64,000 nt of DNA from a virus (IMGVR_UViG_2687453619_000001:1-64000); one strand, 5' to 3'; numbered from the stretch's first letter, positions 32,630 through 51,809 are shown. A program made the numbers and translations. Notes: generated by a model from the letters alone, not told the origin.

Positions 32630-33247
32630 ATGGCAATGCGGAAGATTGTCGTTGTAGGCGACAAGACAACTACAAACGGTGTGATCCTGCCGAATGCAAA
32701 TTCAACTTTCTCTCTTGGCGACGCCGGACACAAGGCGGCGCTAATCGGTGGGCCGGTGCAATGTCTTGCCTGTAAGAGCGAGGGAGTCATTGCTAAGGCC
32801 GGAGGACCGCGCCGGATGCAATTTATGGGCGAGGTCGCACTGGAAGACGATATCGTCATTTGCGGCTGTCCTGTCCATCCGAAGCTCGTAGCGAGTCTCC
32901 ATCAAACAATGACCTACGATGACGGCATAGAGTCATCAGGGCCCGTATCACCTCCTACAGGGGCCGGTGCAGCGTCTGCTGCCGTTGCAGCGGCTACAGC
33001 AGCTGCCTCTTCTGGCGGTACTCAAGATACCCAAGAAAAGCAAGGCAAGCGTTTCCTATTCCAAGATAGCGAAACTGGGAAGCCATTGGCGAACCGTGCA
33101 TATCTTGCCAAAGTTGGCGGCGCTCAGCAGAGCGGCGTGACTGATGGTGATGGATACGCCAATGTTGATGCAGCGCCTGGAGAGGCGATTCAATTACATT
33201 TGATATTCCAAGCGCCAACAGGCGCATTGAAGCACGGAGAGGCTTGA
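32630..33247 (+). CDS. PAAR-domain protein with C-terminal extension
   Basis: GDKTTTNGVI, CLAC and VALEDD...CGC..HP motifs; Ala linker; C-terminal GKPLANRAY...GVTDGDG (transthyretin-like). Confidence 0.85.
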   Translation: MAMRKIVVVGDKTTTNGVILPNANSTFSLGDAGHKAALIGGPVQCLACKSEGVIAKAGGPRRMQFMGEVALEDDIVICGCPVHPKLVASLHQTMTYDDGIESSGPVSPPTGAGAASAAVAAATAAASSGGTQDTQEKQGKRFLFQDSETGKPLANRAYLAKVGGAQQSGVTDGDGYANVDAAPGEAIQLHLIFQAPTGALKHGEA

Positions 33248-33248
33248 G

Positions 33249-33974
33249 ATGGGAACAGACGCGCATTACACGCCGACGCAGTGGGCAACTGCTTTTACAG
33301 AGTCAGACTACATATGCAAGCCGTTCAAGCTGGTTACTGTCAATGACAGAGCAGCTACCCGGGAAGCAATCATTACTCGTGTTCGACAGCAAGGCATGGA
33401 GTTCGTAGAGCGATCCAGCTGGGCCGCGCATAAGAACCGCTCAGAAAAAATGAAGGACGACTGGAATTACACCAAGATCGCCATCCATCATGCCGGACGT
33501 AGCTTCTCCTGCGGGCCTGCCGCACTACAGTTGCAGGAAATCCAAGGCGAACAAATGCAACGTATCTCAGCGGACGATATTGGTTATCACTATGCCCTTG
33601 ATTGTTTCGGAAACGTCTTTGAGGGCCGAGATATCCGGTTCAAGGGAGAGCATGTGCATAACTACAATACCGGCGTTATTGGCATCGTCCTGCTGGAAAA
33701 TTTGGCCGAACCGGAAGAAGGCGGCGATACCGTATCTGCCGTGAGAAAATTTTTTAGTGCAATGGGTGCAAATGAACAGCCTGCAGTACCGACAGCACAA
33801 AGCGAATCAGCTACAAAATTCATCGCCATATTGCGCGAATTCTTCGCCATTACTACCCTGGGTGGGCATAGAGAATTCCCTGGGCAGACTCGGGAAGGGA
33901 AGATTTGCCCCGGTAACGTAGGTCTATCTTTTGTGAAAAAAGCTCGTGCTGCCAGCGGACTTGCAGCGCCATAA
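33249..33974 (+). CDS. N-acetylmuramoyl-L-alanine amidase (Amidase_2/PGRP-like), putative T6SS effector
   Basis: IAIHHAG, DIGYHY, FEGR, GEH...N and GHRE...CPG zinc-amidase motifs; no signal peptide; 1 nt after PAAR. Confidence 0.82.
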   Translation: MGTDAHYTPTQWATAFTESDYICKPFKLVTVNDRAATREAIITRVRQQGMEFVERSSWAAHKNRSEKMKDDWNYTKIAIHHAGRSFSCGPAALQLQEIQGEQMQRISADDIGYHYALDCFGNVFEGRDIRFKGEHVHNYNTGVIGIVLLENLAEPEEGGDTVSAVRKFFSAMGANEQPAVPTAQSESATKFIAILREFFAITTLGGHREFPGQTREGKICPGNVGLSFVKKARAASGLAAP

Positions 33975-33991
33975 CGGAACAACCAAATTCA

Positions 33992-34318
33992 ATGCAAAAA
34001 CCATTCAATAGAAAAATCATTTACGTAGCGACTTTGGTCTTCGTACTGCTGATTGCTTGGCTGTTCACAGGATACGTGCGCTCGTATCTGGATGACGAAC
34101 AGCAAACCTCATTTTTCATCAAGAAATTTCCTACCTTTCAATTGGAGTTTGTCGATCCTTTTGCTAATGAGGGCGATAGTCCTGCCATCGCTGACCTTTC
34201 CACCGTGGATAGAAAATCGCTTGTTGACTACTGCAAATATCGCTTTGGCGTAACGTCAGGCAGCGATGAAGCGCTGGATGACTGCGCTAAGAATATTCCC
34301 GGTTACTTGAAACAGTGA
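33992..34318 (+). CDS. putative periplasmic immunity protein
   Basis: N-terminal TM anchor and two Cys; directly downstream of the amidase. Confidence 0.6.
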   Translation: MQKPFNRKIIYVATLVFVLLIAWLFTGYVRSYLDDEQQTSFFIKKFPTFQLEFVDPFANEGDSPAIADLSTVDRKSLVDYCKYRFGVTSGSDEALDDCAKNIPGYLKQ

Positions 34319-34713: not shown

Positions 34714-35397
34714 TTAGAACAATGTGCCGTTTGATTCGACACGTTTCGTCGTTGATTTTCTCGGGGGTGCTGGTGCCGGCGCAGCTTTCATCAGCGCGGG
34801 CGGGTATAGCTGGAGATATGCTCTAGCGCGTTCAGGATCAGTGCATTCTAACCAGTCGCTGTAGTCGGATTCCGGCACGATCACCAATGACCGTTTTTCA
34901 TCGTCTGGCTTGTGGAATCGCTTCATCAGTGGATGGTCGTCGGCATTGACTGTAATTTGCGTGAATGAGTGTGTTGTTGATCCATCAGGCTCATGCCATA
35001 CACGCCACATGCCGGCGACTGCAAACGACGCCTGATCAGCCATTCCAATGCTCCACCGAACGGCCGAGCCAGTCTCGTAACAAGGCTCATAGAACGATTC
35101 CATCGGGATTAGACAAAGCTGCGCCGCACGCCAGTACTTTGCAAAGCTCGGCTTTTGTCCTATCGTCTCGGCCCGCGCATTCATGGTTGAGAATTTTTTG
35201 ATACCTGGCGGAATATGTCGCTTTGGCACCATCGCATAGCTGGCTAGGATCACTTCGTTGCCGCCGGCACCGCGGCGAATTATCGGGGCATCGTAGTCAT
35301 TGTAAATTTCGTTCGGCCAGTCTAAGCCATTGGGCATCATGGCCTTGAAAATCGGCGGCAAACGGTCACGCGGCGTTGCATTGTAATTTGTACACAT
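34714..35397 (-). CDS. SOS response-associated peptidase (SRAP/YedK/HMCES family)
   Basis: Met-Cys N-terminus (MCTNY), NARAET, CLIP...FYE and SFT.IT.NA motifs. Confidence 0.88.
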   Translation of the reverse strand: MCTNYNATPRDRLPPIFKAMMPNGLDWPNEIYNDYDAPIIRRGAGGNEVILASYAMVPKRHIPPGIKKFSTMNARAETIGQKPSFAKYWRAAQLCLIPMESFYEPCYETGSAVRWSIGMADQASFAVAGMWRVWHEPDGSTTHSFTQITVNADDHPLMKRFHKPDDEKRSLVIVPESDYSDWLECTDPERARAYLQLYPPALMKAAPAPAPPRKSTTKRVESNGTLF

Positions 35398-35426
35398 AGT
35401 TCGACTCTCCATACAGCAGATGCGAT

Positions 35427-35768: not shown

Positions 35769-35856
35769 TTTTCACTCCAAATATTTGATTTATAGAAACA
35801 TGGAAAATTGACCCCGCAACAGCTAGCAGTACAGCGCCGGCAATGCGATAAGCGAA

Positions 35857-36168
35857 TCAATGAACCCTGTGAAATGCGTCGTAGATCATTGAAAACGCGC
35901 AGGCAATCGCACTTGATTCGCCAAAGTCGACCAGGTCATCATTCAGCGGATAGTTGAAAACCCCGGAGTGCCTAATCAAGTTGATGTAGGCTGGCTGGAG
36001 GTCGTCGGCGCGGTTCAATTCGGCCAGCACTTCGCCTTCAATCGAATGGATTAACCGCCAGGTAAGCGGCTGCCCCTCGGTGCGGTGGCGGGTGACTATT
36101 ATCGCAATAATTGGTTCTGCTCGAGCAATTACTGCATCAAATTCGTTCATGTTGGTAAGGCGCATCAT
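35857..36168 (-). CDS. DUF2471-like protein
   Basis: IVTRHR...LTWRLIHSIE.EVL...YP..D..VDF pattern recalled from betaproteobacterial proteins. Confidence 0.6.
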   Translation of the reverse strand: MMRLTNMNEFDAVIARAEPIIAIIVTRHRTEGQPLTWRLIHSIEGEVLAELNRADDLQPAYINLIRHSGVFNYPLNDDLVDFGESSAIACAFSMIYDAFHRVH

Positions 36169-36187
36169 TTTCTCCAAAGCACAAATA

Positions 36188-36205
36188 TACTGTATATATA
36201 CAGTA
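36188..36205. promoter_or_regulatory. SOS-box-like palindrome with short spacer
   Basis: TACTGTATATATACAGTA = CTGT-N6-ACAG (canonical spacer is N8). Confidence 0.4.
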
Positions 36206-36358
36206 TAAACGCTTATCGAGCTTTTGCAAAAATTCCGCGCAAAGTGCGTTATTTTGCGCCAAGCCGTTGCAGGTGGTTTCCCGGCGCACCCAGCACAGCT
36301 CGGGGGCTTGGCGTTTTTGCGAACTGCGTTAGAAGAAGTGCATTAAACGAAGCCGGCA

Positions 36359-36378
36359 GGCGCGGCGGGGGGGATGAC
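36359..36378 (+). other. cos-like site 2
   Basis: GGCGCGGCGGGGGGGATGAC-GGCGCGC, preceded by GTGCATTAAA as upstream of P2 cos. Confidence 0.6.
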
Positions 36379-36408
36379 GGCGCGCCGACCGTCAAATGCT
36401 CCTATATA

Positions 36409-36424
36409 CTGTGTATGAACACAG
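36409..36424. promoter_or_regulatory. LexA (SOS) box
   Basis: CTGT-GTATGAAC-ACAG, canonical CTGT-N8-ACAG. Confidence 0.7.
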
Positions 36425-36645
36425 TGTATTGCTAAAAATGCATTGGTAAATCATCTGTCCTAAATCTATGTCCCGAAAGAGGGGCCGCACGATGCTTTAT
36501 AATTCAGCGGATTTGCCCGCCAGTGGGTTGGCGGCCAGGCAGAATGGCGTTACGCGTGATGGTAAATTTGGAATTTAAGGGGTAGCAAGGAAAAATCTTT
36601 ATTCAACAATCAGTCGCCCTTGGGCACTCTGCCGTGAGAACAGGG

Positions 36646-37710
36646 ATGAAAAATCTAAAATATTGTGTGTTCGGAGATGTTGATCTTGCAGATAAATTTT
36701 TCGATTCTTTAAAAGAAGACTATGCTGAGTTCAGTGATTGGTTCGAACGCAAAGCTGCAAGTCAGGAAATGGCCTACGTGTTCTATCGAGCGCGTGAAGA
36801 AATTGATGGTTTTTTGTACCTAAAGACTGAGGTTGGAGTTGTTGCAGACATCGTCCCACCATTAGCATATGGTCGCCATCTAAAAGTCGGCACACTGAAG
36901 ATTAATGCTCATGGAACAAAGCTCGGCGAACGATTCATAAAAAAGATACTCGATCATGCGGTGCTTGACGGTGTTGATGATGTGTACGTAACCGTGTTCG
37001 AAAAACATGAGAATTTGATTGATCTCATTACCAGATATGGTTTTGAGAGACATGCAGAAAAGCAAGGGAGAAATGGCGTCGAACTAGTGTTTCTCCGAAA
37101 AATGAAAGAGGCGCAAGGTGATGTTCTCAAAGACTATCCCTATATCTTGCCCGATCATGGAAACGCCTTTTTGCTTGGAATCTACCCCCAATACCATACT
37201 CGATTTCTTCCCGATTCAAAATTGCACAATGAATCGTTTGACATACTAAAAGACGTTTCACACACCAATAGCATTCACAAGATTTTCATTTCTGGAGTTG
37301 CCGCGACAGGCAAGCTAAGTGCTGGTGATATCTTGGTCATGTATCGCACAAATGATGGGAAGGGAGGGGGTAAGGCCTACTATCGTTCCGTTGCCACATC
37401 AATATGCGTCGTTGAGGAAGCAAGAAAAATAAAAAGCTTCGATACGAAAGGTGAGTTTATGCGCTATGTTAAGCCGTACAGTGTTTTTGATAGTGCCGAA
37501 TTGGAAGACTATTTTCATAATAAAAAGCGCCGCACAATAATTAAATTTACGTATAACGCAGCTTTGACTAAACGAATTATCCGTGGCAATTTGATCCAAG
37601 AAATTGGTATCTCCTCTAAGAGTCGCTGGGATTTTTTGAAGTTAACCAAAGAACAGCTGTATCAAATAATACAAGTTGGAGAATTAAATGAGAATTTTAT
37701 TATCAATTAA
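36646..37710 (+). CDS. GNAT acetyltransferase fused to a PUA/EVE-like domain
   Basis: GFLYLK...LKVGTLKI..HGTKLGERF...VYVTVF...YGF GNAT core; C-terminal I.P.YH..., GDILVMYR and SVATSICVV PUA-like part. Confidence 0.78.
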   Translation: MKNLKYCVFGDVDLADKFFDSLKEDYAEFSDWFERKAASQEMAYVFYRAREEIDGFLYLKTEVGVVADIVPPLAYGRHLKVGTLKINAHGTKLGERFIKKILDHAVLDGVDDVYVTVFEKHENLIDLITRYGFERHAEKQGRNGVELVFLRKMKEAQGDVLKDYPYILPDHGNAFLLGIYPQYHTRFLPDSKLHNESFDILKDVSHTNSIHKIFISGVAATGKLSAGDILVMYRTNDGKGGGKAYYRSVATSICVVEEARKIKSFDTKGEFMRYVKPYSVFDSAELEDYFHNKKRRTIIKFTYNAALTKRIIRGNLIQEIGISSKSRWDFLKLTKEQLYQIIQVGELNENFIIN

Positions 37711-38101
37711 GCCGGAATTTGCTGCAAAAATTTTAGCCGGCGACAAGCGGTTCGAATTCCGTAAGTCGGCATTTGCAAACGTGTCAGCTAGTTGCATCGT
37801 GATTTATGCAACTAAGCCCGTAGGAAAATTGGTAGGTGAATTTGATGTTGAAAAAGTCTATGTAGATGCACCTGAGAAGATATGGGATCGCACTAAAAAA
37901 TTTGCCGGAATTGCGAAAGAGCGTTACGACGAGTATTACAGTGGTCGAAGTAAGGCCGTTGCTATTGCTGTTGGTGAAGTTAGGAAATACAAAGTTCCGC
38001 TGGATTTGGCGTCGATTGGGGAGCGAATTGTTCCCCCGCAATCATTCAGATATTTACCATCAGATGATTTGAGCGCCGAAAAGCAGCTCGTGCTGGTATG
38101 A
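37688..38101 (+). CDS. ASCH domain protein
   Basis: LLSIKPEFA.KI..GDKRFEFRK (GxKxxExR signature) and PPQSF.Y. Confidence 0.88.
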   Translation: MRILLSIKPEFAAKILAGDKRFEFRKSAFANVSASCIVIYATKPVGKLVGEFDVEKVYVDAPEKIWDRTKKFAGIAKERYDEYYSGRSKAVAIAVGEVRKYKVPLDLASIGERIVPPQSFRYLPSDDLSAEKQLVLV

Positions 38102-38119
38102 AAATTCAAAATTCTTGAG

Positions 38120-38653
38120 GTGGCCGTGAAAACGACTATTTTGAATAGGGAATACCTTTGGAGGAATCCTGAAGAAAGCCTATTGCTTCTTTCGGATACC
38201 AGAAAAATGTTGACTCGAATGTCAGATTTGTACCCGGATTTTAAAAAATGGTTCGATACTAAAGTTCGGGCGGGTGTCGACAATGGGAGTAGATCAATTA
38301 TTCTCGCCCATGCAAACGGTGTTTTAGCAGGTGTAGCAATTGTTAAGGATACAAAATTTGAGCAAAAACTCTGCTGCCTAAGGGTTGTAGAGGATTTTAA
38401 TGGGTCTGGCCTCGGACTCAAGCTATTTGAGAAAGCTTTCGATGTATTGAAAAACGAAAACCCGTTGCTTTCCGTATCGGAGGAGCATTATGAGACTTTT
38501 GCGAAAATATTTCGTCACTATGGCTTCGAATTTGGTAAGGCCTACGACGAATTGTATCGGCCTAAGAAAATTGAACTTAGTTTTAATGGTCTCTTGGTTC
38601 CCGAAAATACATTACTTGAGAAGGCCACTGAGACAATTGATTGTTCGCTTTAA
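38120..38653 (+). CDS. GNAT acetyltransferase
   Basis: KLCCLRV..DFNGSGLG..L acetyl-CoA motif and YGF; N-terminal LYPDFKKWF..K resembles the upstream GNAT. Confidence 0.8.
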   Translation: MAVKTTILNREYLWRNPEESLLLLSDTRKMLTRMSDLYPDFKKWFDTKVRAGVDNGSRSIILAHANGVLAGVAIVKDTKFEQKLCCLRVVEDFNGSGLGLKLFEKAFDVLKNENPLLSVSEEHYETFAKIFRHYGFEFGKAYDELYRPKKIELSFNGLLVPENTLLEKATETIDCSL

Positions 38654-39868
38654 AAGTGTTTGAAAGAGCGCTTTTTTGCGAAACCAATCAAAAATATTTC
38701 CCGAAAAAATCAACAAAATAGCGATCAAGAGAATCAACAAAATAAGAAAAACGTTGTTAGTGTCGTCTCCACCCCAAGATCCAAAGAAATGTCCGCTTTT
38801 GAATTTTATGATTTCCCAGGCGCCGTTGCCAGCCATCCCAAAAACGAGACCTAGTCCAATAAATCGAAATATTTGTGAAGTGCTTGAGCTTGTACGAGAA
38901 AATCGTCCAAGCGCAACTAAATCCTTTACATGTCCTGCTTCGTTCCCGCCGCCTTTTATGGCTTTAGTCCACTGATAACCTAAGTAATTTCTAACTGAGC
39001 CATCAGTTGTTATTGGTGCGTTTACATTGCTTCTTACGTATTCATTCCACACATCTTCATCCATTAGTGAGCGGCAGCCGACAAAATTTTGCCCCTCGAA
39101 TATGCACTCTTGGGAGCGATTTATGGTCAGAAAAAAATGGATTTTCTTAAACTTTGGAAAATGTGTATTCGAATCCCCCGCAAGAAGCTCGTCGGGAATA
39201 CCTCTTCGCACGTTGATCCGGAAGTCGATGATTCGAGTCTCAATGAATGAACTTAATATATTTCTATCTGGCTGACAAAATGTCGCTTGATAGATGGCAT
39301 GTGGGACGTTTTTTATCCGAAACCGTAGGTAAATTTTGGAGGATATTGATGCATATCCAGACAGCGCTGTGTCAGATAAATTTATTCGTAAAATTGTCAT
39401 CTCTCCCTCCCCGGTGAGTCTCGGAAAAACGGAGAAATGAGTAGAGTTTAAACGGAGCAATACGAATTCTGTTTTTTGTTCGGTCGAACTTTTCTTCGTC
39501 TGCTGATCATTGTCTTTTAGAAATGAGACGCTTGCAAAAGGTTCGTCGGCGCTTCCATCGTACCTGACAGCTTCATTAAATATTGCGGCGATACTTTTTT
39601 CGCTGTTGAGCCGTGTGCCAAGATCCATTATCGCTTCAGCGCCTAATTTCCATGGGAGTACGACCTCGATGGCATTGACCTCGGCGCGGTTCGAAATCAA
39701 GATGCCTATGTCAATAAATGGCCGGCTCCCGACTTCCCATAAATTTACGTGAAGCTCATCAGCAGCAGCGTCAACGGGAGTTGACGTTGAAACGTCGCCT
39801 TCGTTCGTCTGTCTTGCAACATATCTGACGATTATTCCGGAAAAAGGATGCACCGCGTACCCCCCCAC
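38612..39868 (-). CDS. hypothetical protein with C-terminal transmembrane helices
   Basis: 418-aa ORF; soluble, probably beta-rich N-terminal part, then IFRFIGLGLVFGMAG and VFLILLILLIAILLIF. Confidence 0.75.
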   Translation of the reverse strand: MGGYAVHPFSGIIVRYVARQTNEGDVSTSTPVDAAADELHVNLWEVGSRPFIDIGILISNRAEVNAIEVVLPWKLGAEAIMDLGTRLNSEKSIAAIFNEAVRYDGSADEPFASVSFLKDNDQQTKKSSTEQKTEFVLLRLNSTHFSVFPRLTGEGEMTILRINLSDTALSGYASISSKIYLRFRIKNVPHAIYQATFCQPDRNILSSFIETRIIDFRINVRRGIPDELLAGDSNTHFPKFKKIHFFLTINRSQECIFEGQNFVGCRSLMDEDVWNEYVRSNVNAPITTDGSVRNYLGYQWTKAIKGGGNEAGHVKDLVALGRFSRTSSSTSQIFRFIGLGLVFGMAGNGAWEIIKFKSGHFFGSWGGDDTNNVFLILLILLIAILLIFSGNIFDWFRKKALFQTLLKRTINCLSGLLK

Positions 39869-39970
39869 TTAGTTATTGATTTTCAGCAAGCATAACACTT
39901 GAGGTAACTAAATTAGTGCTGAGTAATGATTTTCAATGTTTAGAGAGTAGCAATGAAAAGATGGGAGGCT

Positions 39971-40504
39971 TTAATTTGGTAACTCGTCAAAAAAACTGTC
40001 CATGACCTTTGTGAACGAAATTTCAGTGGGCGCAAAAAGCACTTCAAGACGAATGTTTAAAGCTCTGCAGACTAATTCGGCTTGTTTTTTTTCTGCCGCG
40101 CTAAATGTGGCGATATTTTCTACCAAAAAATTTGCATCACGGTCCCCCAATCTCTTCTGCACGATCTCCGGACTATCTTCCAATAAGACAATTCCATTAA
40201 GATTCAGCGCGGAAAAAATTTCAGGATCAATTGGCTGCAGCTTCCCCTCAAAATCTTTGAGGACAAAGTGGCCATCAAGTAGAAGTTCTCTTCCAGACGC
40301 ATGAATTTTTTCTACGGCCTTGATTAATGCGGTCTGATTTTTATCTATGTCTCCTACCAATTTGTTTTTGGTCCAATTTGCAACAAGAAGCTCCTCGCGG
40401 ATGAGTGTACTTGCAGTTGCATGAATGATATTTTTGCCTGCAACGTATTTATCGCTGAGGTATGTTTTACCGACACCATGAACACCCGCAACAAATATGA
40501 CCAT
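39971..40504 (-). CDS. P-loop nucleotide kinase (AAA_17 / archaeal adenylate-kinase-like)
   Basis: IFVAGVHGVGKT Walker A, LLLDGHF, and lid arginines RL..RD. Confidence 0.85.
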   Translation of the reverse strand: MVIFVAGVHGVGKTYLSDKYVAGKNIIHATASTLIREELLVANWTKNKLVGDIDKNQTALIKAVEKIHASGRELLLDGHFVLKDFEGKLQPIDPEIFSALNLNGIVLLEDSPEIVQKRLGDRDANFLVENIATFSAAEKKQAELVCRALNIRLEVLFAPTEISFTKVMDSFFDELPN

Positions 40505-40732
40505 TTTATTTTTTCCTTGTTAGAAAGCCGCATTTCAAGAAAGGTAATGACGAAATTTTTCACCTGTTGCAAGTATTTTACACAGATATCAATTGCGGCA
40601 TTTTTACCGTATTTGCTTTTAAAGTGTGGCTTCATTTCGCGCAACAGCGATGATCCGACCCCCGTAGTGCGCGCCTCACAACCTGATGTATGGTGCGCAG
40701 TTCGATCGGTTTGAGCGCAATCGCGGTAAAAA

Positions 40733-40942
40733 TTAGCGCCCAGCACGGCGAAGCGCTGCTTTTTCCTTGTCGTAGTCATCGCGGCAATCCATATTGCAAA
40801 ACAGAAGCGCCGGCGCGATCTGCTCGTCGCAAAAATGGCAGCGACCGTCACTTTCCAACATTTGCTGCTTTCTGACATGTGCCATGGCGTTATGCACGTC
40901 TTTCTCAATGCGCCAGATGGCGCGGTCTGCGATGTCGCTCAT
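40733..40942 (-). CDS. small TraR/DksA-like C4 zinc-finger protein (copy 2)
   Basis: near-identical to 904-1116. Confidence 0.7.
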   Translation of the reverse strand: MSDIADRAIWRIEKDVHNAMAHVRKQQMLESDGRCHFCDEQIAPALLFCNMDCRDDYDKEKAALRRAGR

Positions 40943-42003
40943 TGCTTGTTTCCCTCTCCTGTCAATAATTCGTATTTTTCAAATTTCACGACCTCGATGC
41001 CTAGCCAATCGTTGAGCGCCATGAACTGAGATTGCAGCGGCACCAGCTCGTTGCGGGCAAATACCCGGGCGGCCGGTTCAATCGCGCCGAACCCGCCGGT
41101 ATTGTTCGGCATGATTCCCATCAGCTGAGGCGGCACGCGATGGCCGGCCAGCACGTCGTCGCGGGTGACTCCCTTGATGTTGAAAAACTCATCCTTCGCC
41201 GCCACGTCTGATACCGGCAGGATCTGGATCCCGTCTTTCTTCCCGTTCGGCGCGTACATGAACAGATTGCGGAAATTGCCCGGCCCTTTGCTGTCGCGCA
41301 TGGCCTGCCGCAAGTTGTCGACGTCTTTCACGTTGGCGGCCGGATCGGTCATGTAGAACACGAAGCCGGCGTGTGAGCCGTTCTTGTAATACTTGCGCCG
41401 GAACAGGGTGGCTGCCTCATTCAACCAGGCCGATTGCAGGGCGGAGAGGTATTGCGGCACGCCGTACACCTCCTGGTTCAGATCCGGATCCATCAAATGA
41501 AAAACGGATCCCTTGTCGAAGGTATATTCCTGCTGCCATCCCGCCACAAAATAGTAGGTATCCAGATCCTTGCCGCGCCGCATGTACTTCGCCAGGGAGT
41601 GCTTTAGCTGTAGGGGTTGGCGGCTAAGGCTGGCGCGCTTCTCCAGATAGCCATTGCCGAAGGTCAGGAAATCCAGCACGAAGCGTTTAAACGTATCCCG
41701 CGACAGGTACTTGTGCGGGATGAATGTCGAGGTCAGGATGTTGGTTTTAAAATAAATGGCGCTGCTGTGGTGGACGCTGGCGTGAAACGATTTCGCGAGA
41801 CCCGCCAGGCTGACCGGCGGCTCGTACCACTTGCCGTTGAGCCAGCACTCAAAACAGTCCAGCACCTCGCTGTGATCGAGAACCGGTGTCGGGTCGCCAA
41901 AGCTAAACGCCTCCATACCGCCGCCGGCGCGGGGTACGTCTGCCAGCGGCGCCGGCGGTGTCTCGGCATGCTGCGCGGCGCGCCGATGCTGCTTTCTGCT
42001 CAT
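40939..42003 (-). CDS. portal protein gpQ (copy 2)
   Basis: near-identical to 1113-2177. Confidence 0.95.
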   Translation of the reverse strand: MSRKQHRRAAQHAETPPAPLADVPRAGGGMEAFSFGDPTPVLDHSEVLDCFECWLNGKWYEPPVSLAGLAKSFHASVHHSSAIYFKTNILTSTFIPHKYLSRDTFKRFVLDFLTFGNGYLEKRASLSRQPLQLKHSLAKYMRRGKDLDTYYFVAGWQQEYTFDKGSVFHLMDPDLNQEVYGVPQYLSALQSAWLNEAATLFRRKYYKNGSHAGFVFYMTDPAANVKDVDNLRQAMRDSKGPGNFRNLFMYAPNGKKDGIQILPVSDVAAKDEFFNIKGVTRDDVLAGHRVPPQLMGIMPNNTGGFGAIEPAARVFARNELVPLQSQFMALNDWLGIEVVKFEKYELLTGEGNKQ

Positions 42004-43787
42004 GATGTATATAGCTCCATAAAGGATTGGGTGTTCTCGTTGGCGCCCTCGAATGGTTCGTGATCGAGTGCGTGCATGCAGGCCCACGCCAGGTCGGCAT
42101 GGCCGGTTTCATCGGTACGGCCGGCGTCATAGGTGACTTGCCGCCCGCTCGTGGTGAGGGTTTTGCGGATGGTCATGAAGGACTGCGCAATGTCGGTCCA
42201 GCCGGCGTCGAATTCCAGCCGCGCCTTGTTGACGATGTTTTGCGCCTTCAGCACCATCCGGGTTTTGACTTCCGGCGAGTAGTTGATCGCCGTCGCCAGC
42301 GGGAAGAACTGTTTCACCAGGGGGTACACGCCGACGCCCATGCCGGTGGTGTCGATGCCGATATAGGCGACGTTGTAGCGGGTCGTCATCTCCTTGATCG
42401 CCTTGGCCTGCGCCTCGAAGTCGATGCCGCGCCACTGGAAGCGCTCCAGGATGCGGAATTTGCCGCCGGCGACCAGGGGCGGGGCGATCACCACGCAGCC
42501 AGCGCTGTCGCCGGTCAATGAGGGGTCGTAGCCGATCCAGACCGGCCGGTCACCGAAGGGGCGGCTGGCGAACGGCTTATAGTCGTCCCAACTGACCCAG
42601 GAATCGATCATGCAGCGCTGCAAGGCCATCAACGGGAACACGGATTGCGTGTCGTCGATGAAGTTGCACATCAGCAGATTTTCAAACTGGTCCGGGCTGT
42701 ACTCGAAATTGCGCAGCTCATCGATGTCGAACAGATTGCAACCGCCGCGCTCGGCGTCGAGGATGGTGACGATCTGGCGCCACATCTTGTCCTCACCTGT
42801 AAAGCCGCTGGACAGCTTCAAATGGCTGATATCGATGTCGACCTGGTCAGCCTTCGCCCGGCGCTTGTTGAACAGTTCGCCGGTCCAGAACGGATACGCC
42901 TGGTGCGTGATCGAGGAGGGCGTCGAAAAGTAGGTCTTGCGCCACTGCTTATGCAGCGCCATGCCTGACGCGACCTTGTTAAGCTCCTGGAAGTTGTGGG
43001 TCCAGAAAAACTCGTCAAAGTAGAAATTGCCGTGATAGCCCTGGGCGGTGCGCGCATTGGTCCCAAGGAAATACAAGTGGGCGCCGTTCGGCAGCACAAT
43101 CGGGTCGCCGGCCAGCTCGATGCCGGCGGCCTCCTTGGCGAACTGGATGATGTACTGCTTAAAAACGTGTGCTTGCGCCTTGGACGCTGACAGGAAGATC
43201 TGATTGCGGCCGGTTTGCATCGCGTCGGCCAGCGCCTCCCGGGCAAAGTACCAGGTCGCACCGATCTGGCGCGATTTTAAGATCACCCGGGTTCTTTGGT
43301 CGCCGTTGCGATGCCATACCTTCTGGTAATCGAACAGGGAGTCCCTGAATGCCTCCAGTAGCTTGTCTTTCTGCTCCTCGCTGAAATCGTTCCTTGTCGG
43401 CTTCTTCTTTGGTTCGGCGTTACGGTTCGCCAGCTTCGGGTTCAGGTCGACTTCGTTGCCACCCGGCGCCTCATAGCGGCGCACCCGGGCAGTCTGCACC
43501 ACCTGGCGCATCAAGAGGTCTATTTCCTTGAAATCGCCGCCGGTCTTGGCGTCCTTGGTGATCAGCTGCACCAGGCGCGATTCCAGCGTGGCTTCGATCT
43601 TCTCCAGCGGAGTGGCTTTGTCCCATTCGTCGCGCTGTTTCCAGCTCTCGATGGTCGTGCGCTTCTGCAGCAGGTGTTTGGCAATGGAGGTGACGCGCCA
43701 GCCTTGCCAGTACAGGTGCTTGGCAATGCGGCGCGGATCCACTTCGGGTTCTATTTCGGCAGGGTGTTCTTCGATCAATTCAGACAT
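42000..43787 (-). CDS. terminase ATPase gpP (copy 2)
   Basis: near-identical to 2174-3961. Confidence 0.95.
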   Translation of the reverse strand: MSELIEEHPAEIEPEVDPRRIAKHLYWQGWRVTSIAKHLLQKRTTIESWKQRDEWDKATPLEKIEATLESRLVQLITKDAKTGGDFKEIDLLMRQVVQTARVRRYEAPGGNEVDLNPKLANRNAEPKKKPTRNDFSEEQKDKLLEAFRDSLFDYQKVWHRNGDQRTRVILKSRQIGATWYFAREALADAMQTGRNQIFLSASKAQAHVFKQYIIQFAKEAAGIELAGDPIVLPNGAHLYFLGTNARTAQGYHGNFYFDEFFWTHNFQELNKVASGMALHKQWRKTYFSTPSSITHQAYPFWTGELFNKRRAKADQVDIDISHLKLSSGFTGEDKMWRQIVTILDAERGGCNLFDIDELRNFEYSPDQFENLLMCNFIDDTQSVFPLMALQRCMIDSWVSWDDYKPFASRPFGDRPVWIGYDPSLTGDSAGCVVIAPPLVAGGKFRILERFQWRGIDFEAQAKAIKEMTTRYNVAYIGIDTTGMGVGVYPLVKQFFPLATAINYSPEVKTRMVLKAQNIVNKARLEFDAGWTDIAQSFMTIRKTLTTSGRQVTYDAGRTDETGHADLAWACMHALDHEPFEGANENTQSFMELYTS

Positions 43788-43826
43788 GCCGCAAGCGTAT
43801 GCGTCGCGCGCGTGTAGCGGGGAAAG

Positions 43827-43859
43827 CAGAGGGTTGATATACGGCTTATCAACCCTCTG
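43827..43859. promoter_or_regulatory. P/O late-promoter dyad (copy 2)
   Basis: identical to 4001-4033. Confidence 0.6.
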
Positions 43860-43928
43860 TTTGTTGTCGCATCCCGCGCCAAGGCCGACCATGGAGTCCT
43901 TATCCAGCACTCACACCGAGCCGACACC

Positions 43929-44780
43929 ATGTCAACAGCCAAACCGACTGCATCAACCAAATCAAAATTCTTCCGTGTCGCCGTCGAAGGCGCCACGACT
44001 GACGGCCGCGTGATCGACCGCTCTTTCATTGAGCAGATGGCCGCGACCTTCAATCAGCAACTCTACGGCGCCCGCGTCTGGTTGGAGCATCTGCGCAGCA
44101 CCTTGCCGGATGGCCCCTTTAAAGCCTATGGCGATGTGCTGGCGGTGAAAGCGGAAGAGGTCATTCTCAACGGCGTCAAGAAGCTGGCCCTGTTTGCACA
44201 GATCTCGCCGACACCGGAGCTGGTGGCGATGAACAAGGCCCGCCAGAAGATCTACACCAGCATCGAGATCAATCCTAAATTTGCTGATACCGGCGAAGCC
44301 TACCTGGTCGGCCTGGCCGTGACCGACAGCCCGGCCAGCCTCGGCACCGAAATGCTGGCGTTCGCGGCACAGCATCCCGATGTCAACCCACTCGCCAGCC
44401 GCAAGCAAGATCCCGACAACCTGTTCACAGCGGCGGTGGAAACCGCACTGGAATTTGAAGACACCCCAACCGAACCCGAAGGAATCAAATTGTCCGACAC
44501 CGTCAAAGCCATCCTGAAGCGCTTTACCAATAAAACCGCCAAAGACCAGCTCCAGTTCGCCGATATCACCGAGGCCGTGTCCGAGCTGGCAACGCATGTC
44601 AGTGAGAGCGCTGAGCAGTATGCCGCTGCAGTGACGCGCATCGAAACGCTGGAAACGGCGCTGAAAGAGTCCAACGACGCTTTTGCCGCCTTCAAGCAGC
44701 AGGTTGACGGCACTGACGCCAACCCGACGCAGCGTCCGACAGCATCGGGCGGCGCCGGCGCGTTGCAAACCGATTTCTAA
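43929..44780 (+). CDS. capsid scaffold gpO (copy 2)
   Basis: paralog of 4103-4954. Confidence 0.95.
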   Translation: MSTAKPTASTKSKFFRVAVEGATTDGRVIDRSFIEQMAATFNQQLYGARVWLEHLRSTLPDGPFKAYGDVLAVKAEEVILNGVKKLALFAQISPTPELVAMNKARQKIYTSIEINPKFADTGEAYLVGLAVTDSPASLGTEMLAFAAQHPDVNPLASRKQDPDNLFTAAVETALEFEDTPTEPEGIKLSDTVKAILKRFTNKTAKDQLQFADITEAVSELATHVSESAEQYAAAVTRIETLETALKESNDAFAAFKQQVDGTDANPTQRPTASGGAGALQTDF

Positions 44781-44840
44781 GCGACGCAGCCGGCCGCCAT
44801 ATTCCAACTTTGAACCCATACCCGACAGGAGCATGACCAC

Positions 44841-45845
44841 ATGAGAAAAAACACCCGAATCGCCTATAACCAGTACGCGCAGCGCGTAGCGCAACTGAAT
44901 GACGCCAGCAACGTTGTCGAGACGTTCAGTGTGGATCCCAGCATTCAGCAGAAGCTGGAAACCCGCATGCAGGAGTCCAGCGAATTCCTGGGCAAGATCA
45001 ATATCATAGGCGTGACCGAGCAAGAAGGCGAGAAGCTGGGTCTCGGCATTTCCGGCCCGACTGCCAGCCGCACCAATACCGACAAAGGCGACCGAAAGAC
45101 CCGCGACCTGTCCACCCTGGATAACCAGCGCTACCGCTGCGAAAAAACGAACTTCGATACGCATATCGGCTACGCCAAGCTCGATGCCTGGGCGAAATTT
45201 CCCGACTTCCAGCAACGCATTGCCAACAACATCCTGCAGCGCCAGGCGCTGGACCGGATGATGATCGGTTTTAACGGCACCACCATTGCCGCCGACACCG
45301 ACCTGGTGAAATATCCGATGCTGCAGGATGTCAATAAGGGCTGGCTGCAGCACTACCGCGAACAAGCGCCCCAGCGCGTGCTGCACGAAGGTAAGACCCC
45401 CGGCAAGGTGGTCGTCGGCGCCGGCGGCGACTATGCCAACCTGGACGCCGTGGTGTACGACGCCATCACCTTGCTGGATCCTTGGTATCAACAAGACAGC
45501 GGCTTGGTCGCCATCGTCGGCCGTGGCCTGTTGCATGACAAGTATTTCCCCCTGGTGAACACCAAGCAGGCGCCGACCGAAACCCTGGCAGCCGACATCG
45601 TCATCAGCCAGAAGAGAATCGGCGGCCTGCAGGCGGCCACCGTACCGTATTTCCCGGAACACGCCATCCTGATTACCCGCTTCGACAACCTGTCGATCTA
45701 CTGGCAAGAGGGCGGCCGCAGGCGCCGGGTGGAAGATGTTCCCAAGCGTGACCGTATCGAAAACTACGAATCGTCCAATGATTCCTATGTGATCGAAGAT
45801 CTCGGCCTGGGCGCTTTTGTCGAAAATCTTGAGCTGGTGGCCTGA
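44841..45845 (+). CDS. major capsid gpN (copy 2)
   Basis: paralog of 5015-6019. Confidence 0.95.
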   Translation: MRKNTRIAYNQYAQRVAQLNDASNVVETFSVDPSIQQKLETRMQESSEFLGKINIIGVTEQEGEKLGLGISGPTASRTNTDKGDRKTRDLSTLDNQRYRCEKTNFDTHIGYAKLDAWAKFPDFQQRIANNILQRQALDRMMIGFNGTTIAADTDLVKYPMLQDVNKGWLQHYREQAPQRVLHEGKTPGKVVVGAGGDYANLDAVVYDAITLLDPWYQQDSGLVAIVGRGLLHDKYFPLVNTKQAPTETLAADIVISQKRIGGLQAATVPYFPEHAILITRFDNLSIYWQEGGRRRRVEDVPKRDRIENYESSNDSYVIEDLGLGAFVENLELVA

Positions 45846-45846
45846 G

Positions 45847-46563
45847 ATGCGTGAACTGTCTCCCGCCCAGCGGCACCGGGTTCGCGTACTGGCCGAGCGC
45901 GATGCCGCCAGCGCCGAACCCGGCGGCCCAACTTCCGGCTCTCAGTACGAGCTGCAGTTGTACCAGTTGGCCGAGGACCGGCGCCGCCTGAAAAACATCC
46001 AGTCGATCAAGAGCAAGATCGCACTGAAGGCGCAGTTGCTGCCGAAGTATCAGATCTGGGTCGACGGCGTGCTGGCGGCGGGGAAGGGCGGCCAGGACGA
46101 TGTACTGACGACCATCCTGGTCTGGTCTATCGATGCCGGCGACTATGAGCGTGCCGTGCAGATCGCCAGCTATGCCGTGACGCACAAGATGACATTGCCG
46201 GATCAGTACAACCGCGACATTCCGACCGTGCTGCTGGACGAGTTCTCTGAGGCGTTCCTGCACGGGAAGCTGGCCGAGGATCCGGCACTGGCGGTCAGGG
46301 TGCTGGCCCAGATCGAGCATCTGACTAAAGACAGCGACGTGCCGGACCAGGCCCGCGCCAAGCTGCACAAGGCGCTGGGCTATGCGTTGCTGGTACAGGC
46401 CAATGACGGCGACGATAAGCGAGATCTGGCCGGTCTGTCTCTGGAATACGCCCAGGCAGCCTATGGCAGCCTGACCCGCGCCTTGGAGTTGTTTCAAGGC
46501 GTGGGCGTCAAGAAAGATATTGAAACCCTTGAACGTCGCTTGAAGAAAGCGACACAAGGCTAA
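45847..46563 (+). CDS. terminase endonuclease gpM (copy 2)
   Basis: paralog of 6021-6737. Confidence 0.92.
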   Translation: MRELSPAQRHRVRVLAERDAASAEPGGPTSGSQYELQLYQLAEDRRRLKNIQSIKSKIALKAQLLPKYQIWVDGVLAAGKGGQDDVLTTILVWSIDAGDYERAVQIASYAVTHKMTLPDQYNRDIPTVLLDEFSEAFLHGKLAEDPALAVRVLAQIEHLTKDSDVPDQARAKLHKALGYALLVQANDGDDKRDLAGLSLEYAQAAYGSLTRALELFQGVGVKKDIETLERRLKKATQG

Positions 46564-46661
46564 ACGAGCACCCCCTGGCGCACGGCGGCGCGGGTCGATT
46601 ACCGATGCCTGGCATGTAGGTATGACGCCCGCCCACCGCCGTTTTTTTGGAAGTTACCCCT

Positions 46662-47156
46662 ATGAGCTTTCTTGCTGTCGAGCCTTCGACACCCTCAACA
46701 CCACCACCGCCGCCTGCTTCTCCCATTGTCGAAAACGATGGCTTCTATGTGGATATCCACTTGCCGCAGATGCGCGACGCGGTGCGCCTGGACGGCACCG
46801 TCACCGACGTGCGCCTGCGGGAGGCCGTGATCGCAGCCATCTTGCACGTCAATGACGAGCTGCGGGACTGGAAGCTGCTGCAGATTGCTGCCGGCTACGC
46901 GTCGCTGGCGGCCGTGCCGGCGGACCGCATCGACCGCGAGAGCGTGCTAATTTCCCTCTATCGCCGCGCCGTCTACTGCAGCGCCAAAGCCGATCTGATC
47001 GAGCGCTACCGCGATTACGACAGCACGGCATCGTCGCTGTCCGATAAAAAGATGATGGAGGCGCTGGACAACGCACCAGGCGACCAGCGGCGCAATGCCC
47101 ATTGGGCCATTGCGGACATCATTGGCCGCTCTCACTTGACCGTTGAGCTGATCTGA
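46662..47156 (+). CDS. head completion gpL (copy 2)
   Basis: paralog of 6836-7330. Confidence 0.9.
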   Translation: MSFLAVEPSTPSTPPPPPASPIVENDGFYVDIHLPQMRDAVRLDGTVTDVRLREAVIAAILHVNDELRDWKLLQIAAGYASLAAVPADRIDRESVLISLYRRAVYCSAKADLIERYRDYDSTASSLSDKKMMEALDNAPGDQRRNAHWAIADIIGRSHLTVELI

Positions 47157-47365
47157 TGGAGGTACGTGCTCAACAACATGACACGTTGGATCTGCTGTGC
47201 TGGCGTCACCTGGGCGCGACCGCCAATGTAGTCGAGGCAGCACTAGAACTGAATCCCGGCTTGGCCGACTACGGGCCGATCCTGCCGCACGGCCTCCTGG
47301 TCACCTTGCCCGAACCAACAGCTACCCCCACTAAAACCGCCCAGGTCGTCAACCTCTGGGACTAA
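47156..47365 (+). CDS. tail protein X (copy 2)
   Basis: paralog of 7330-7539. Confidence 0.92.
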   Translation: MEVRAQQHDTLDLLCWRHLGATANVVEAALELNPGLADYGPILPHGLLVTLPEPTATPTKTAQVVNLWD

Positions 47366-47381
47366 CCGCGAGATTCTCACT

Positions 47382-47738
47382 ATGGCAGAACCCAGCACCA
47401 CCACCCTGGTCGTCACCAGTGCCGCCGGCATCGGCCTGTCAACGCTGTTCCCTGGCATTGACGGTAATGCGCTGATCGGCGCGTTCGCCGGCGCCACGCT
47501 GGTGGCGATCTCCAGCAAGAACCTGCCGGCCCTGCAACGCCTGGCGTATATGGTCATTTCCCTTGCCATCGGCTACCTGGCCGCGCCCGAGGCCATCAAC
47601 AATACGCCGTTGAAGCAATCGGGTGTCGCCGCCTTCTTCGCGTCGGCGGCGGCCATTGCCCTGACGCTGCACGGCATCGATCTGATTAAAACCATTGAGC
47701 TGCCGGCCTGGCTGCGCAAGGGCGGTGACCATGACTAA
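47382..47738 (+). CDS. putative holin (copy 2)
   Basis: paralog of 7556-7912. Confidence 0.75.
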   Translation: MAEPSTTTLVVTSAAGIGLSTLFPGIDGNALIGAFAGATLVAISSKNLPALQRLAYMVISLAIGYLAAPEAINNTPLKQSGVAAFFASAAAIALTLHGIDLIKTIELPAWLRKGGDHD

Positions 47739-47997
47739 ATATCTGACCGTCCTGGCGTTGCTCTGTTACGCCAGCACCTGCCTGCGACTGCTGTGCTATC
47801 GGCGCGGCCTGGCGAATCACCGCTTGCATATCTCCCTGGTGGCCTGGTTTCTGATTGTCGCCACCGGCACTTCCGCCCTGGAGATCCTGCTGGGCCACGG
47901 TCATCCCTCTTTCGGGCAGGCCGCCATCGCTTTGACTTTATGTGTCCTGGTGCATCGCGCCCAGGGTAACGTCGCCAACATCATCAGAGGTATGTAA
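47731..47997 (+). CDS. putative holin / membrane protein (copy 2)
   Basis: paralog of 7905-8174. Confidence 0.7.
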   Translation: MTKYLTVLALLCYASTCLRLLCYRRGLANHRLHISLVAWFLIVATGTSALEILLGHGHPSFGQAAIALTLCVLVHRAQGNVANIIRGM

Positions 47998-48461
47998 TGA
48001 CCACCACAACAGCATTGACAGAGCATTTCACCCTGGAAGAATTCACGCGCAGCGACAAAGCGCGCTCCCTCTCTATCGATAACGCGCCGGCGCCGGCCAT
48101 CGTTGCCAACCTGCGGCGCTTGGCGAAGTTTAACGAGCTGGTGCGCCTGGAGCTGGGCGGCGCTGCCATGGTCATTTCCAGCGGCTACCGCTGCCTGGCA
48201 CTGAACCGAGCGGTCGGCGGCGCCGGCAACAGCGCGCACCTGGACGGCCTGGCCTGCGACTTTACGGCGCCGGCATTCGGCACACCGATGGCGATCTGCC
48301 AGGCGCTGGATAAGTCATACCTGCAATTCGATCAGCTGATCTATGAGCGGGTCGGCGGCGCGGTATGGGTTCACCTGGGTATCGCGGTCGAAGGTAAAGC
48401 GCCGCGGCGCCAGGTGCTGACGATCGACAACCGCGGTACCCGGATCGGTCTATGGAGCTGA
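47997..48461 (+). CDS. endolysin, peptidase M15 (copy 2)
   Basis: paralog of 8171-8635. Confidence 0.88.
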   Translation: MTTTTALTEHFTLEEFTRSDKARSLSIDNAPAPAIVANLRRLAKFNELVRLELGGAAMVISSGYRCLALNRAVGGAGNSAHLDGLACDFTAPAFGTPMAICQALDKSYLQFDQLIYERVGGAVWVHLGIAVEGKAPRRQVLTIDNRGTRIGLWS

Positions 48462-48874
48462 TCGTCAAAAGTCTGATATCGGCCCTGTTTGTCGGTGCGC
48501 TGGGCCTGGTCATCTATGTGCAGCACAACGGCCTGAAAGCGGCGAAAGAGCGGGCAGAGCGTGCCGAACAGATCGCACGCGACCGCGACGACACCATCAA
48601 GACCTTGACGGACGCGGCGGCCAGGGACAAGAAGGCCGCCGCGAAGCTACAAACCGCCCATGACCGGATCGCTACCACCCTCGCCGAGCGAGAAAACCTG
48701 ATTGAAAGCCTGCAACATGAGAATCCCACGATACGCAGCTGGGCCGATACTCCTCTGCCTGACGCTATTGCCGGCCTGCGGCAGCATCCAGCCGCCACCG
48801 GCGCCGACGATTACCGTCAACGCCTGTCCAACAGTGACCCGCTGCCAACTGCCGGCGGCAGCGCCCAGGACTAA
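48452..48874 (+). CDS. lysB: i-spanin (copy 2)
   Basis: paralog of 8626-9048. Confidence 0.85.
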   Translation: MELIVKSLISALFVGALGLVIYVQHNGLKAAKERAERAEQIARDRDDTIKTLTDAAARDKKAAAKLQTAHDRIATTLAERENLIESLQHENPTIRSWADTPLPDAIAGLRQHPAATGADDYRQRLSNSDPLPTAGGSAQD

Positions 48875-48995
48875 CGGCGCTATGTTGCTCGACCTGGAGC
48901 GCGCAGAGGCGGCCTGGGGGATCTGTGCGGCCAAGGTGGACGCTATTGTCGATTGCCAGGAGGATGCCGAGCGTGTACAAGCCAAAAAGCCTTAG
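48717..48995 (+). CDS. lysC: o-spanin (copy 2)
   Basis: paralog of 8891-9169. Confidence 0.85.
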   Translation: MRIPRYAAGPILLCLTLLPACGSIQPPPAPTITVNACPTVTRCQLPAAAPRTNGAMLLDLERAEAAWGICAAKVDAIVDCQEDAERVQAKKP

Positions 48996-49461
48996 GGCGC
49001 ATCTCAAGGCCGCTATTGCGGATCTGACCCAGAACCCCGACAAGCTGCTGATATTCGCCGATGCCGGCAATACGGTTGCGACCGGGACGAAATCCCTGTC
49101 GTTTGAGTATAGGTATCAGCTCAACATCATTGTGACCGACTATAGCGGCGAACCCGACGCGATCATGGTGGCACTGCTGGCATGGGTAGGGGTTCACCAG
49201 CGGGATCTGCTGGAGCATCCGGAGCTGCGCAAGACCGGTATCGGCTTTGATGTGGATTTCCACAATCATGAAACCGTTGATCTGTCGATCAAGCTGGCAT
49301 TGACTGAGAGTGTAGTCGTCAAAGATGCCGGCGCTGGCCGGCTGGAGGTGCGACACCCTGGAGAACCTCAGTTGACGCCAGCCTATGCGAATGCTTTCTG
49401 GCAGGCTTATGCGGGTGATTCTCTCCTGGCGGAATGGCATACGCCGGCGGATCCGGTATGA
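48964..49461 (+). CDS. tail completion gpR (copy 2)
   Basis: paralog of 9138-9635. Confidence 0.9.
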   Translation: MPSVYKPKSLRAHLKAAIADLTQNPDKLLIFADAGNTVATGTKSLSFEYRYQLNIIVTDYSGEPDAIMVALLAWVGVHQRDLLEHPELRKTGIGFDVDFHNHETVDLSIKLALTESVVVKDAGAGRLEVRHPGEPQLTPAYANAFWQAYAGDSLLAEWHTPADPV

Positions 49462-49922: not shown

Positions 49923-50017
49923 GCGCAGTATTCAATGGTGAAACACTTAACTTGAATGTGGAGTTCGGATCGGAGAAGACTATAATCTTTCAAAATGTCA
50001 ACTAATCGGGGGAAAGC

Positions 50018-50944: not shown

Positions 50945-51037
50945 TCTGTCTCACTAACGATACTGTTTGGTCGAAATGATTGAAAGCTGAGCTGCATTTT
51001 CTATCGTTAGGATGGCCTTTACCAACAGGGGGAAGCT

Positions 51038-51775: not shown

Positions 51776-51809
51776 CCATTTGGATGACCTCCTTGTAAGG
51801 AGCTAAAAA

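Follow-up and report, generated by a model that had tools for sequence, protein, structure and literature searches.

Introduction

The locus analysed here comprises five genes, which we call A to E, at 36646..40504 of a 64,000-nt stretch of viral DNA (IMGVR_UViG_2687453619_000001:1-64000; hereafter, the window), itself part of a 75,483-base provirus record. Its closest described relative is the GNAT-EVE/ASCH module. Bell, Wolf and Koonin (2020, PMC7641849) report that operons with (PIN)-GNAT-EVE genes nearly always include a gene for an ASCH protein and, in many cases, one for an AAA_17 ATPase, and that the PIN-less form resides in beta- and gamma-proteobacterial prophages. They predict a toxin-antitoxin (TA) role, describe every one of the modules as uncharacterised, and trace the first description, along with a proposal of DNA-base acetylation, to Iyer et al. 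2013. In PADLOC the module appears as PDC-M11, PDC systems being sets of genes found inside BREX, DISARM and type I restriction-modification (RM) loci (Payne et al., 10.1101/2024.01.29.577857); in another paper, PDC-M11 figures as an inventory entry only. A third description is the record of E. coli phage PhiR47_2, in which an A/B pair directly after cI is annotated as 'GevT toxin' and 'GevA antitoxin' (PV340567.1). The module is widespread in prophages and has stood on candidate lists since 2013-2024, with no mechanism in the literature that we found.

The biochemistry of ASCH proteins offers a way in. The ASCH protein YqfB hydrolyses N4-acetylcytidine (ac4C) (PMC6972931), and a preprint reports that all 19 ASCH proteins assayed deacetylated tRNA ac4C in vitro, with the Lys and Glu of the ASCH motif as the essential catalytic dyad for its removal (10.64898/2026.02.27.708502). 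This eraser activity on tRNA ac4C now makes a writer/eraser TA reading of the module directly testable.

The window locus belongs with this module and extends it. A belongs to a family of GNAT-EVE fusions, B is an adjacent ASCH gene and E is an AAA_17 partner of the non-obligatory kind; the likeness rests on the profile matches of A, B and E and on A and B being adjacent and overlapping. An initial annotation of the window had taken the locus for a defence candidate and suggested running PADLOC, and in that run A and B match PDC-M11. Because PDC-M11, the operon of PMC7641849 and the GevT/GevA record all describe it, the A/B/E core was already known bioinformatically. What the window adds is a stand-alone GNAT (C) and a membrane-anchored protein (D). 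The word 'transmembrane' occurs 0 times in the main text of PMC7641849 and no PADLOC model matches D; the C-D extension and its strict linkage to the core appear to be new.

Linkage of the five genes

The five genes are one co-inherited mobile cassette. Presence was scored in loci with at least 2.5 kb on either side of D (the full-flank set, n=23), where C and B are found in 23/23, A in 22/23 and E in 19/23. The whole D-seeded set (n=59, not dereplicated and with many cut contigs) has C in 51/59, B in 50/59, A in 45/59 and E in 32/59. All 12 D-seeded loci from genomes have C and a B-like gene, 11 of them have A and nine have E; 44 metagenome and two viral D loci give the same picture. A relative with only 22% identity to D, reached by the distant profile alone, is again accompanied by A, B, C and E. 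The initial annotation had made its reading depend on the plus- and minus-strand operons occurring together in other genomes, and the 23 full-flank loci bear this out strongly.

Gene order is variable, with at least six arrangements among the 23 full-flank loci. E and D converge on A, B and C in the window and in L002, L114 and L116 (our locus labels); D alone converges on E, A, B and C in L003-L007 and many others; D and C converge on A, B and E in L111. Single-strand orders are E-A-B-C-D (L117, L148) and A-B-D-C (L012, L013, L142, L144, L146, L147, L149, L152). Genes that are retained while their order is shuffled bear the mark of a functional unit.

Some loci depart from this pattern. In L008 and L132, D and C occur with an ASCH-like gene, and A and E are missing. 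In L124, D and a divergent GNAT adjoin an A that bears a PIN domain, and B and E are present too. The A-less set of L008 is preceded, at a distance of 283 nt and in the same orientation, by a gene for a 570-aa 5'-nucleotidase/metallophosphatase (4341-6053). A, C and D are split by frameshifts in L009, L010 and L011 (two loci of Janthinobacterium lividum and one of Morganella psychrotolerans); either the system is decaying there or the draft assemblies are at fault.

We also approached the linkage from the side of A. Single-sequence searches of genome and viral contigs with A found nothing, but alignment-based searches did find relatives. The viral search gave 345 candidate stretches, of which 219 code for relatives of A; among the 80 loci kept, B is present in 79 (the remaining one is cut), E in nine, and C and D in one each. 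A sample of 400 Gammaproteobacteria contained A at E up to 1e-10 in seven genomes, including the centre genome, and one further genome was left unscored. The six other A-positive genomes have B in 6/6, E in 4/6 and C/D in 0/6, and distant A homologues in this sample bear an N-terminal PIN-like extension. A homologues also occur in 16 records of the phage collection, and the module counts 1859 protein clusters. C was seen only in places where D occurs. A and B form the core found throughout, E often joins it, and C and D are added strictly as a pair, with an ASCH partner.

After dereplication at 95%, nine of the 10 A genes linked to D have E with them, versus 11 of 39 other A genes. In a quick maximum-likelihood tree of A, eight of the 10 D-linked rows form one clade (Shimodaira-Hasegawa-like approximate likelihood-ratio test, SH-aLRT, 95), with L012 and L111 elsewhere on long branches, and at least two changes are forced for D linkage. 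C-D is therefore either ancient with frequent loss, or was recruited more than once.

The wider D family counts 983 cluster representatives at E up to 1e-3. D has no match in 50,697 phage records, and a sample of other Pseudomonadota contains it in 0/400 by the close profile and 1/400 by the distant one; a metagenome search with a single distant D found nothing. In L155 (2347-3704), the gene for a very distant family member of 333 aa overlaps a MazG-like gene at the latter's stop; the 3.8-kb contig has a PIN gene nearby and contains neither a GNAT nor an ASCH gene. The D family may have a part in other nucleotide-related conflict modules as well.

The settings of the other loci are those of mobile elements, with integrases, an RM methylase, ParE, HipA, TIR and a type I S subunit among the neighbours. 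In the P2-like Salmonella phage SopEPhi, an A/B pair lies between gpA and the portal gene gpQ.

Composition of the five proteins

Open reading frame (ORF) scans of the window confirmed all five genes at the positions first described, and the convergence of the two operons, with an overlap at 38612-38653, was found as well (Table 1). The short motifs that had been picked out in B, C and E are all present.

A is a two-domain protein of 354-358 aa; we place its start at the ATG at 36646 because homologues begin there. Its match to Pfam GNAT is weak (2.4e-4, under the gathering score), whereas PDC-M11A is matched over the full length (1.7e-141) and phrog_6345 at 7.8e-146. The PUA/EVE domain that the initial annotation assigned to A holds at the level of the family, in which 10 of 21 aligned members match Pfam EVE (best 1.3e-4), and agrees with the literature; in the window protein itself the C-terminal half has no Pfam match on its own. 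By hhalign, the profile of this C-terminal domain proved weakly co-linear with that of ASCH (E 5e-4, probability 31%); in the PDB it has no match at E up to 10.

B overlaps A by 23 nt. It matches Pfam ASCH above the gathering score (7.2e-6) and PDC-M11B at 5.3e-47, and its closest solved relative is Zymomonas mobilis ZmASCH (5GUQ/5GUS, E 5.6e-13). The octapeptide of B contains Glu, which places the protein in the GKER subgroup with ZmASCH, EOLA1 and TRIP4; it does not have the Thr/Ser of the YqfB-type octapeptide, GK[T/S]R. G18, K20, E23 and R25 are invariant in 15/15 aligned B homologues, the divergent L008 protein included, and B carries the Lys/Glu dyad of the GKER-type ASCH tRNA ac4C deacetylases. 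A further match of B (NCBIfam, 6e-16) is to PRK12279, a fusion protein with ribosomal protein L22, in its C-terminal 'unknown domain'. Some organisms thus fuse an ASCH domain of this sort to a ribosomal protein, which hints at a link with RNA or the ribosome.

C matches Pfam GNAT at 8.7e-6. The N-terminal motif noticed earlier in both GNATs reflects true homology, as hhalign aligns C with the GNAT domain of A over 108 columns with a probability of 97.5% (E 5.6e-12). Judged by this alignment, C is a paralogue of the GNAT domain of A, which explains why both contain the motif Y-x-x-F-x-x-W-F. The 3' ends of the convergent genes C and D overlap by 42 nt.

D probably starts at 39853, since the database gene call has 413 aa. 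It consists of an N-terminal conserved domain of ~330 residues, with many invariant polar residues, and a hydrophobic C-terminal part. The latter had been described as two hydrophobic helices; one is a strong transmembrane helix (~372-392), while the other is a weaker, glycine-rich hydrophobic segment (~333-354). D has no match in Pfam, NCBIfam, PHROG or PADLOC. Its profile found nothing meaningful in the PDB (best E 0.7), the ESM Atlas returned hypothetical clusters only and a weak VIT-like match (TM-score 0.39-0.41), and hhalign showed D to be unrelated to the EVE-like and ASCH profiles. Among 29 distant D relatives, 0/29 match Pfam and 0/29 match PADLOC.

E matches AAA_17 at 2.1e-14. Comparison of A, C and E with Pfam and NCBIfam (E up to 0.01) listed no match to a TmcA/NAT10 family. 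The more specific labels of the initial annotation, a nucleotide-activating kinase, a membrane effector and an acylated nucleotide signal, found nothing in their favour beyond domain family.

Comparison with known systems

In the phage defence system DarT/DarG, the toxin places a covalent modification on nucleic acid, which the antitoxin enzyme erases. By analogy, the cassette would combine a writer toxin with an eraser antitoxin, the two genes being neighbours on mobile elements. The chemistries differ, being ADP-ribosyl with an ART and a macrodomain in DarT/DarG and acetyl with a GNAT and an ASCH protein in the cassette, and the sequences are unrelated.

The ac4C writers TmcA and NAT10 combine a P-loop module with a GNAT. 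The cassette resembles the ac4C machinery in having a GNAT, a P-loop NTPase, an RNA-binding module and an ASCH amidohydrolase with a K/E dyad, but its modules are separate genes and B is of the ZmASCH-like GKER type. The fused helicase-type P-loop, GNAT_acetyltr_2 and tRNA-binding domain of TmcA/NAT10 are not among the matches listed for A, C and E, and only the set of activities is alike.

TacAT, AtaRT and KacAT are TA systems with a GNAT toxin. They share with the cassette a GNAT annotated as a toxin and a small neighbouring antidote gene. In the cassette, however, the antidote is an ASCH enzyme and not an RHH/DUF1778 repressor, neither domain being found in a Pfam scan of the five proteins; the toxin carries an EVE domain and is not a single-domain protein of ~160-180 aa. 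The additional kinase, GNAT and membrane protein of the cassette are not known from TacAT, AtaRT and KacAT.

Finally, lambda RexAB and P2 Old/Tin are exclusion genes carried as prophage cargo. The likeness here is one of genomic slot: after cI in PhiR47_2, which we take to be the position of rexAB in lambda; between gpA and gpQ in SopEPhi; and by the portal gene in the window. There is no sequence or domain relation to the cassette.

Proposed role and alternative explanations

With moderate confidence we regard the cassette as an elaborated GNAT-EVE/ASCH module, carried as cargo in the variable cos/portal-proximal slot of a P2-like prophage and serving as an acetylation-based writer/eraser TA or abortive-infection defence. 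The proposal starts from what was observed, namely that the genes are linked, which domain families they belong to and that residues of catalytic type are conserved; from this we infer all of the activities described below. A would be an acetyltransferase directed to nucleic acid by its EVE domain; most likely it would acetylate cytidine at N4, either in RNA (tRNA or another kind) or possibly in DNA. B would be the enzymatic antidote that removes the mark, in a writer/eraser pair like DarT/DarG; the strict conservation of its active site beside a GNAT argues for such a pair rather than for a binder. E may supply an ATP-dependent step, comparable to the P-loop module of TmcA/NAT10. C and membrane-anchored D may form a second arm, consisting of a GNAT plus a targeting or sensing partner, with B as the common eraser; the loci with an ASCH gene, D and C fit the idea that C-D can replace A.

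The cassette probably acts as a TA or abortive-infection defence expressed by the lysogen. Infection by another phage would upset the balance of writer and eraser, and the imbalance would shut down translation or replication, leading to abortive infection or exclusion. The positions of the cassette, together with an AbiTii-like gene and a cytosine methylase in a second variable region of the same prophage, point to a lysogen-expressed exclusion or abortive-infection role. A writer/eraser arrangement had already been put forward in the initial annotation; it is compatible with the new ASCH biochemistry, but its A/B/E set turns out to be a conflict module that was described before.

A more specific version of this proposal is tentative, and we think it rather unlikely. 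It would be an acetylation immunity with two writers, A acting via EVE and C targeted or activated by D, and one eraser, B, in which D senses phage entry or envelope stress. Both A and C would write a mark such as ac4C on RNA or DNA with the help of the P-loop enzyme, and B would restrain the mark until infection.

Several observations weigh against an acetylation-based defence. The coenzyme A (CoA) loop of A is atypical, HGTKLG, with Lys at the expected central Gly, and a basic residue occupies this position in all those rows of a 29-row alignment that were inspected by eye. The nearest solved GNATs to A, PaiA and Naa50, are not nucleic-acid enzymes. ZmASCH, the GKER-subgroup relative of B, was originally reported as a weak RNase on single-stranded RNA; in the preprint it is inactive on free ac4C and did not lower tRNA ac4C in vivo (10.64898/2026.02.27.708502). 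E weakly resembles archaeal adenylate kinases (E ~2e-3), and most A/B loci are without E. D has no fold or motif recognisable in sequence and profile searches, and its distant relative in L155 sits with MazG and PIN genes instead. As to the module itself, our literature search found no experiment and no protection or toxicity data on any cassette member; the PDC systems are stated to be untested (Payne et al., 10.1101/2024.01.29.577857); and the names GevT and GevA rest on GenBank annotation, with no paper on them found in the literature searched, although one may exist elsewhere. PMC7641849 also raises the possibility that prophage GNAT-EVE proteins protect the phage from host restriction.

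This last point leads to an alternative that we consider unlikely, namely that the module performs DNA modification or anti-restriction for the phage, A (with E) acylating the bases of its own phage and B trimming or editing the mark. The GNAT-fold protein Mom, which modifies the DNA of phage Mu, provides a precedent, and A/B pairs are common in prophages (219 viral-contig relatives). PMC7641849 relays the base-acetylation proposal of Iyer et al. 2013, suggests that prophage GNAT-EVE shields phages from RM, and describes EVE domains as readers of modified DNA bases. The cassette is, however, also found in non-phage islands beside integrases, a relaxase and TA genes; the PIN-bearing form is embedded in host RM, BREX and DISARM loci, the setting from which the PDC list was drawn; the lambdoid pair follows cI, where lysogen-expressed genes lie; and a membrane-anchored D is hard to accommodate.

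We judge it equally unlikely that A is a toxin of the TacT/AtaT type that acetylates aminoacyl-tRNA, its EVE domain picking tRNAs by a modified base and B binding or regulating A. An aminoacyl-tRNA target is suggested in PMC7641849, the 23-nt overlap of A and B recalls type II TA pairs, and PV340567.1 uses the labels toxin and antitoxin. For simple binding, however, B would have no use for the complete catalytic ASCH motif, which is present in 15/15 of its homologues, and besides the missing RHH or DUF1778 antitoxin domain, the closest solved GNATs to A are not tRNA-acetylating toxins.

That two independent systems share one hotspot, an A-B(-E) module and a separate, unrelated C-D module, is improbable, and among the main rivals it is the least compatible with the linkage data. 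A/B do occur without C/D in 79 of 80 viral loci, the window uses opposite strands, and the D-linked rows need at least two changes on the A tree. Against this, C and D are never apart from an ASCH gene in the full-flank loci (23/23), single-strand operons read E-A-B-C-D or A-B-D-C, the latter with D between B and C, the linkage persists at 22% D identity, and C is a paralogue of the GNAT domain of A.

A housekeeping role in nucleoside salvage or the turnover of RNA modifications (YqfB-like ac4C catabolism), with no part in conflict, draws on the hydrolysis of ac4C by ASCH proteins (PMC6972931) but is very improbable, as the genes are rare and patchy (A in 7/400 sampled Gammaproteobacteria, D in 0-1/400 other Pseudomonadota) and always on mobile elements, and B is of the GKER and not the YqfB GK[T/S]R type.

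If the acetylation-based defence that we favour is correct, nucleic-acid acetylation would join the chemistries of bacterial immunity. In the two-writer form, the cassette would be the first defence system to work via reversible nucleic-acid acetylation, and the D family, with its 983 cluster representatives, would gain a role as a GNAT adaptor. The five-gene form gives a firm, order-independent link to two further genes, offers natural 'minimal' variants (an ASCH gene with D and C, without A), and through this association could help to solve the function of the large membrane-anchored D family.

Prophage context

The window contains two related P2-like prophages in tandem (regions 1-36000 and 36000-64000). 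The closest named phages are P2-like Burkholderia phages, with a terminase identity of 65-67%. Prophage 1 and prophage 2 are 93.6% identical between 914-10074 and 40740-49900, 92.4% between 11540-18831 and 54296-61599, and 94.1% between 18893-21291 and 61603-64000. The cassette fills the portal-proximal slot of prophage 2, and the right boundary of this variable region was mapped to 40740, where homology to the sister prophage begins (its position 914). The corresponding slot of prophage 1 holds an unrelated DUF6216 gene, as the initial annotation had said. The AT-rich character noted there is also clear, with a GC content of 0.38-0.45 across 36500-40500 versus 0.58-0.62 from 41000 on, in the phage structural genes. 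The drop in GC, the sister prophage and SopEPhi together show a variable, compositionally distinct insert that differs between related phages, in line with the cargo hotspot proposed at the outset.

Table 1. Features of the window, with coordinates counted from its first nucleotide.
Feature	Position	Strand	Description
Gene A	36634/36646-37710	+	GNAT (~residues 1-165) and EVE/PUA-like (~170-358); PDC-M11A, 'GevT'-like
Gene B	37688-38101	+	ASCH, GxKxxExR (GKER) type; octapeptide GDKRFEFR; PDC-M11B, 'GevA'-like
Gene C	38120-38653	+	Stand-alone GNAT; canonical GxGxG CoA loop (FNGSGLG)
Gene D	38612-39868	-	Membrane-anchored; 418 aa, or 413 aa from likelier start 39853
Gene E	39971-40504	-	AAA_17 small P-loop kinase-like; GVHGVGKT, LLDGH
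Intergenic, upstream of A-B-C operon	36178..36645	.	Two palindrome-bearing 30-nt repeats in region
Intergenic, upstream of E-D	40505..40739	.	Variable region ends on right at 40740
Portal gene	40939-42087		Right of cassette
Large terminase gene	42000-43910		Right of cassette
SRAP (SOS-response-associated peptidase) gene	34714-35412		Just left of cassette
DUF2471 gene	35857-36177		Just left of cassette
DUF6216 gene	1-897		Prophage 1, portal-proximal slot
AbiTii-like gene	50018-50944		Prophage 2, second variable region; PADLOC 6e-50
Cytosine methylase match	53447-54289		Prophage 2, second variable region; truncated-looking
245-aa ORF			Prophage 2, second variable region
490-aa ORF			Prophage 2, second variable region; no match
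Type II methylase	10737-11543		Prophage 1, second variable region; 2.9e-98
219-aa ORF			Prophage 1, second variable region
PAAR-motif protein	32630-33247		Between prophage 1 integrase and cassette
Amidase_2 protein	33249-33974		Between prophage 1 integrase and cassette
Small ORF	33992-34318		After Amidase_2 gene

A second non-homologous variable region separates the two prophages at 49900-54296 (prophage 2) versus 10074-11540 (prophage 1). With its AbiTii-like gene and methylases, it is probably another defence hotspot.

No near-identical DNA turned up when the locus was searched against E. coli genomes and phage records. The sequencing runs listed for it include none of RNA, only DNA runs with a small share. 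Promoter and terminator scans gave no signal above shuffles, and an Rfam scan of 35800-41000 returned one chance-level match only. Upstream of A, two copies of a 30-nt repeat (36173-36202 and 36392-36421) are 73% alike, each with a palindrome. The first has CTGT-N6-ACAG, and in the second there is a canonical SOS-box-like CTGT-N8-ACAG at 36409-36424. The stricter form TACTGT-N8-ACAG has one match in the window, and at least one match was obtained in 3 of 100 shuffles. We rejected SOS control as a general feature of the cassette, the CTGT-N8-ACAG box being missing from the 12 related loci examined; for this reason the box may belong to the regulation of the window prophage itself, and the paired repeats may be operators of that prophage. 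Further to the left, the genes for the PAAR-motif protein and the Amidase_2 protein and the small ORF that follows (32630-34318) look like an effector/immunity set of the type VI secretion system kind.

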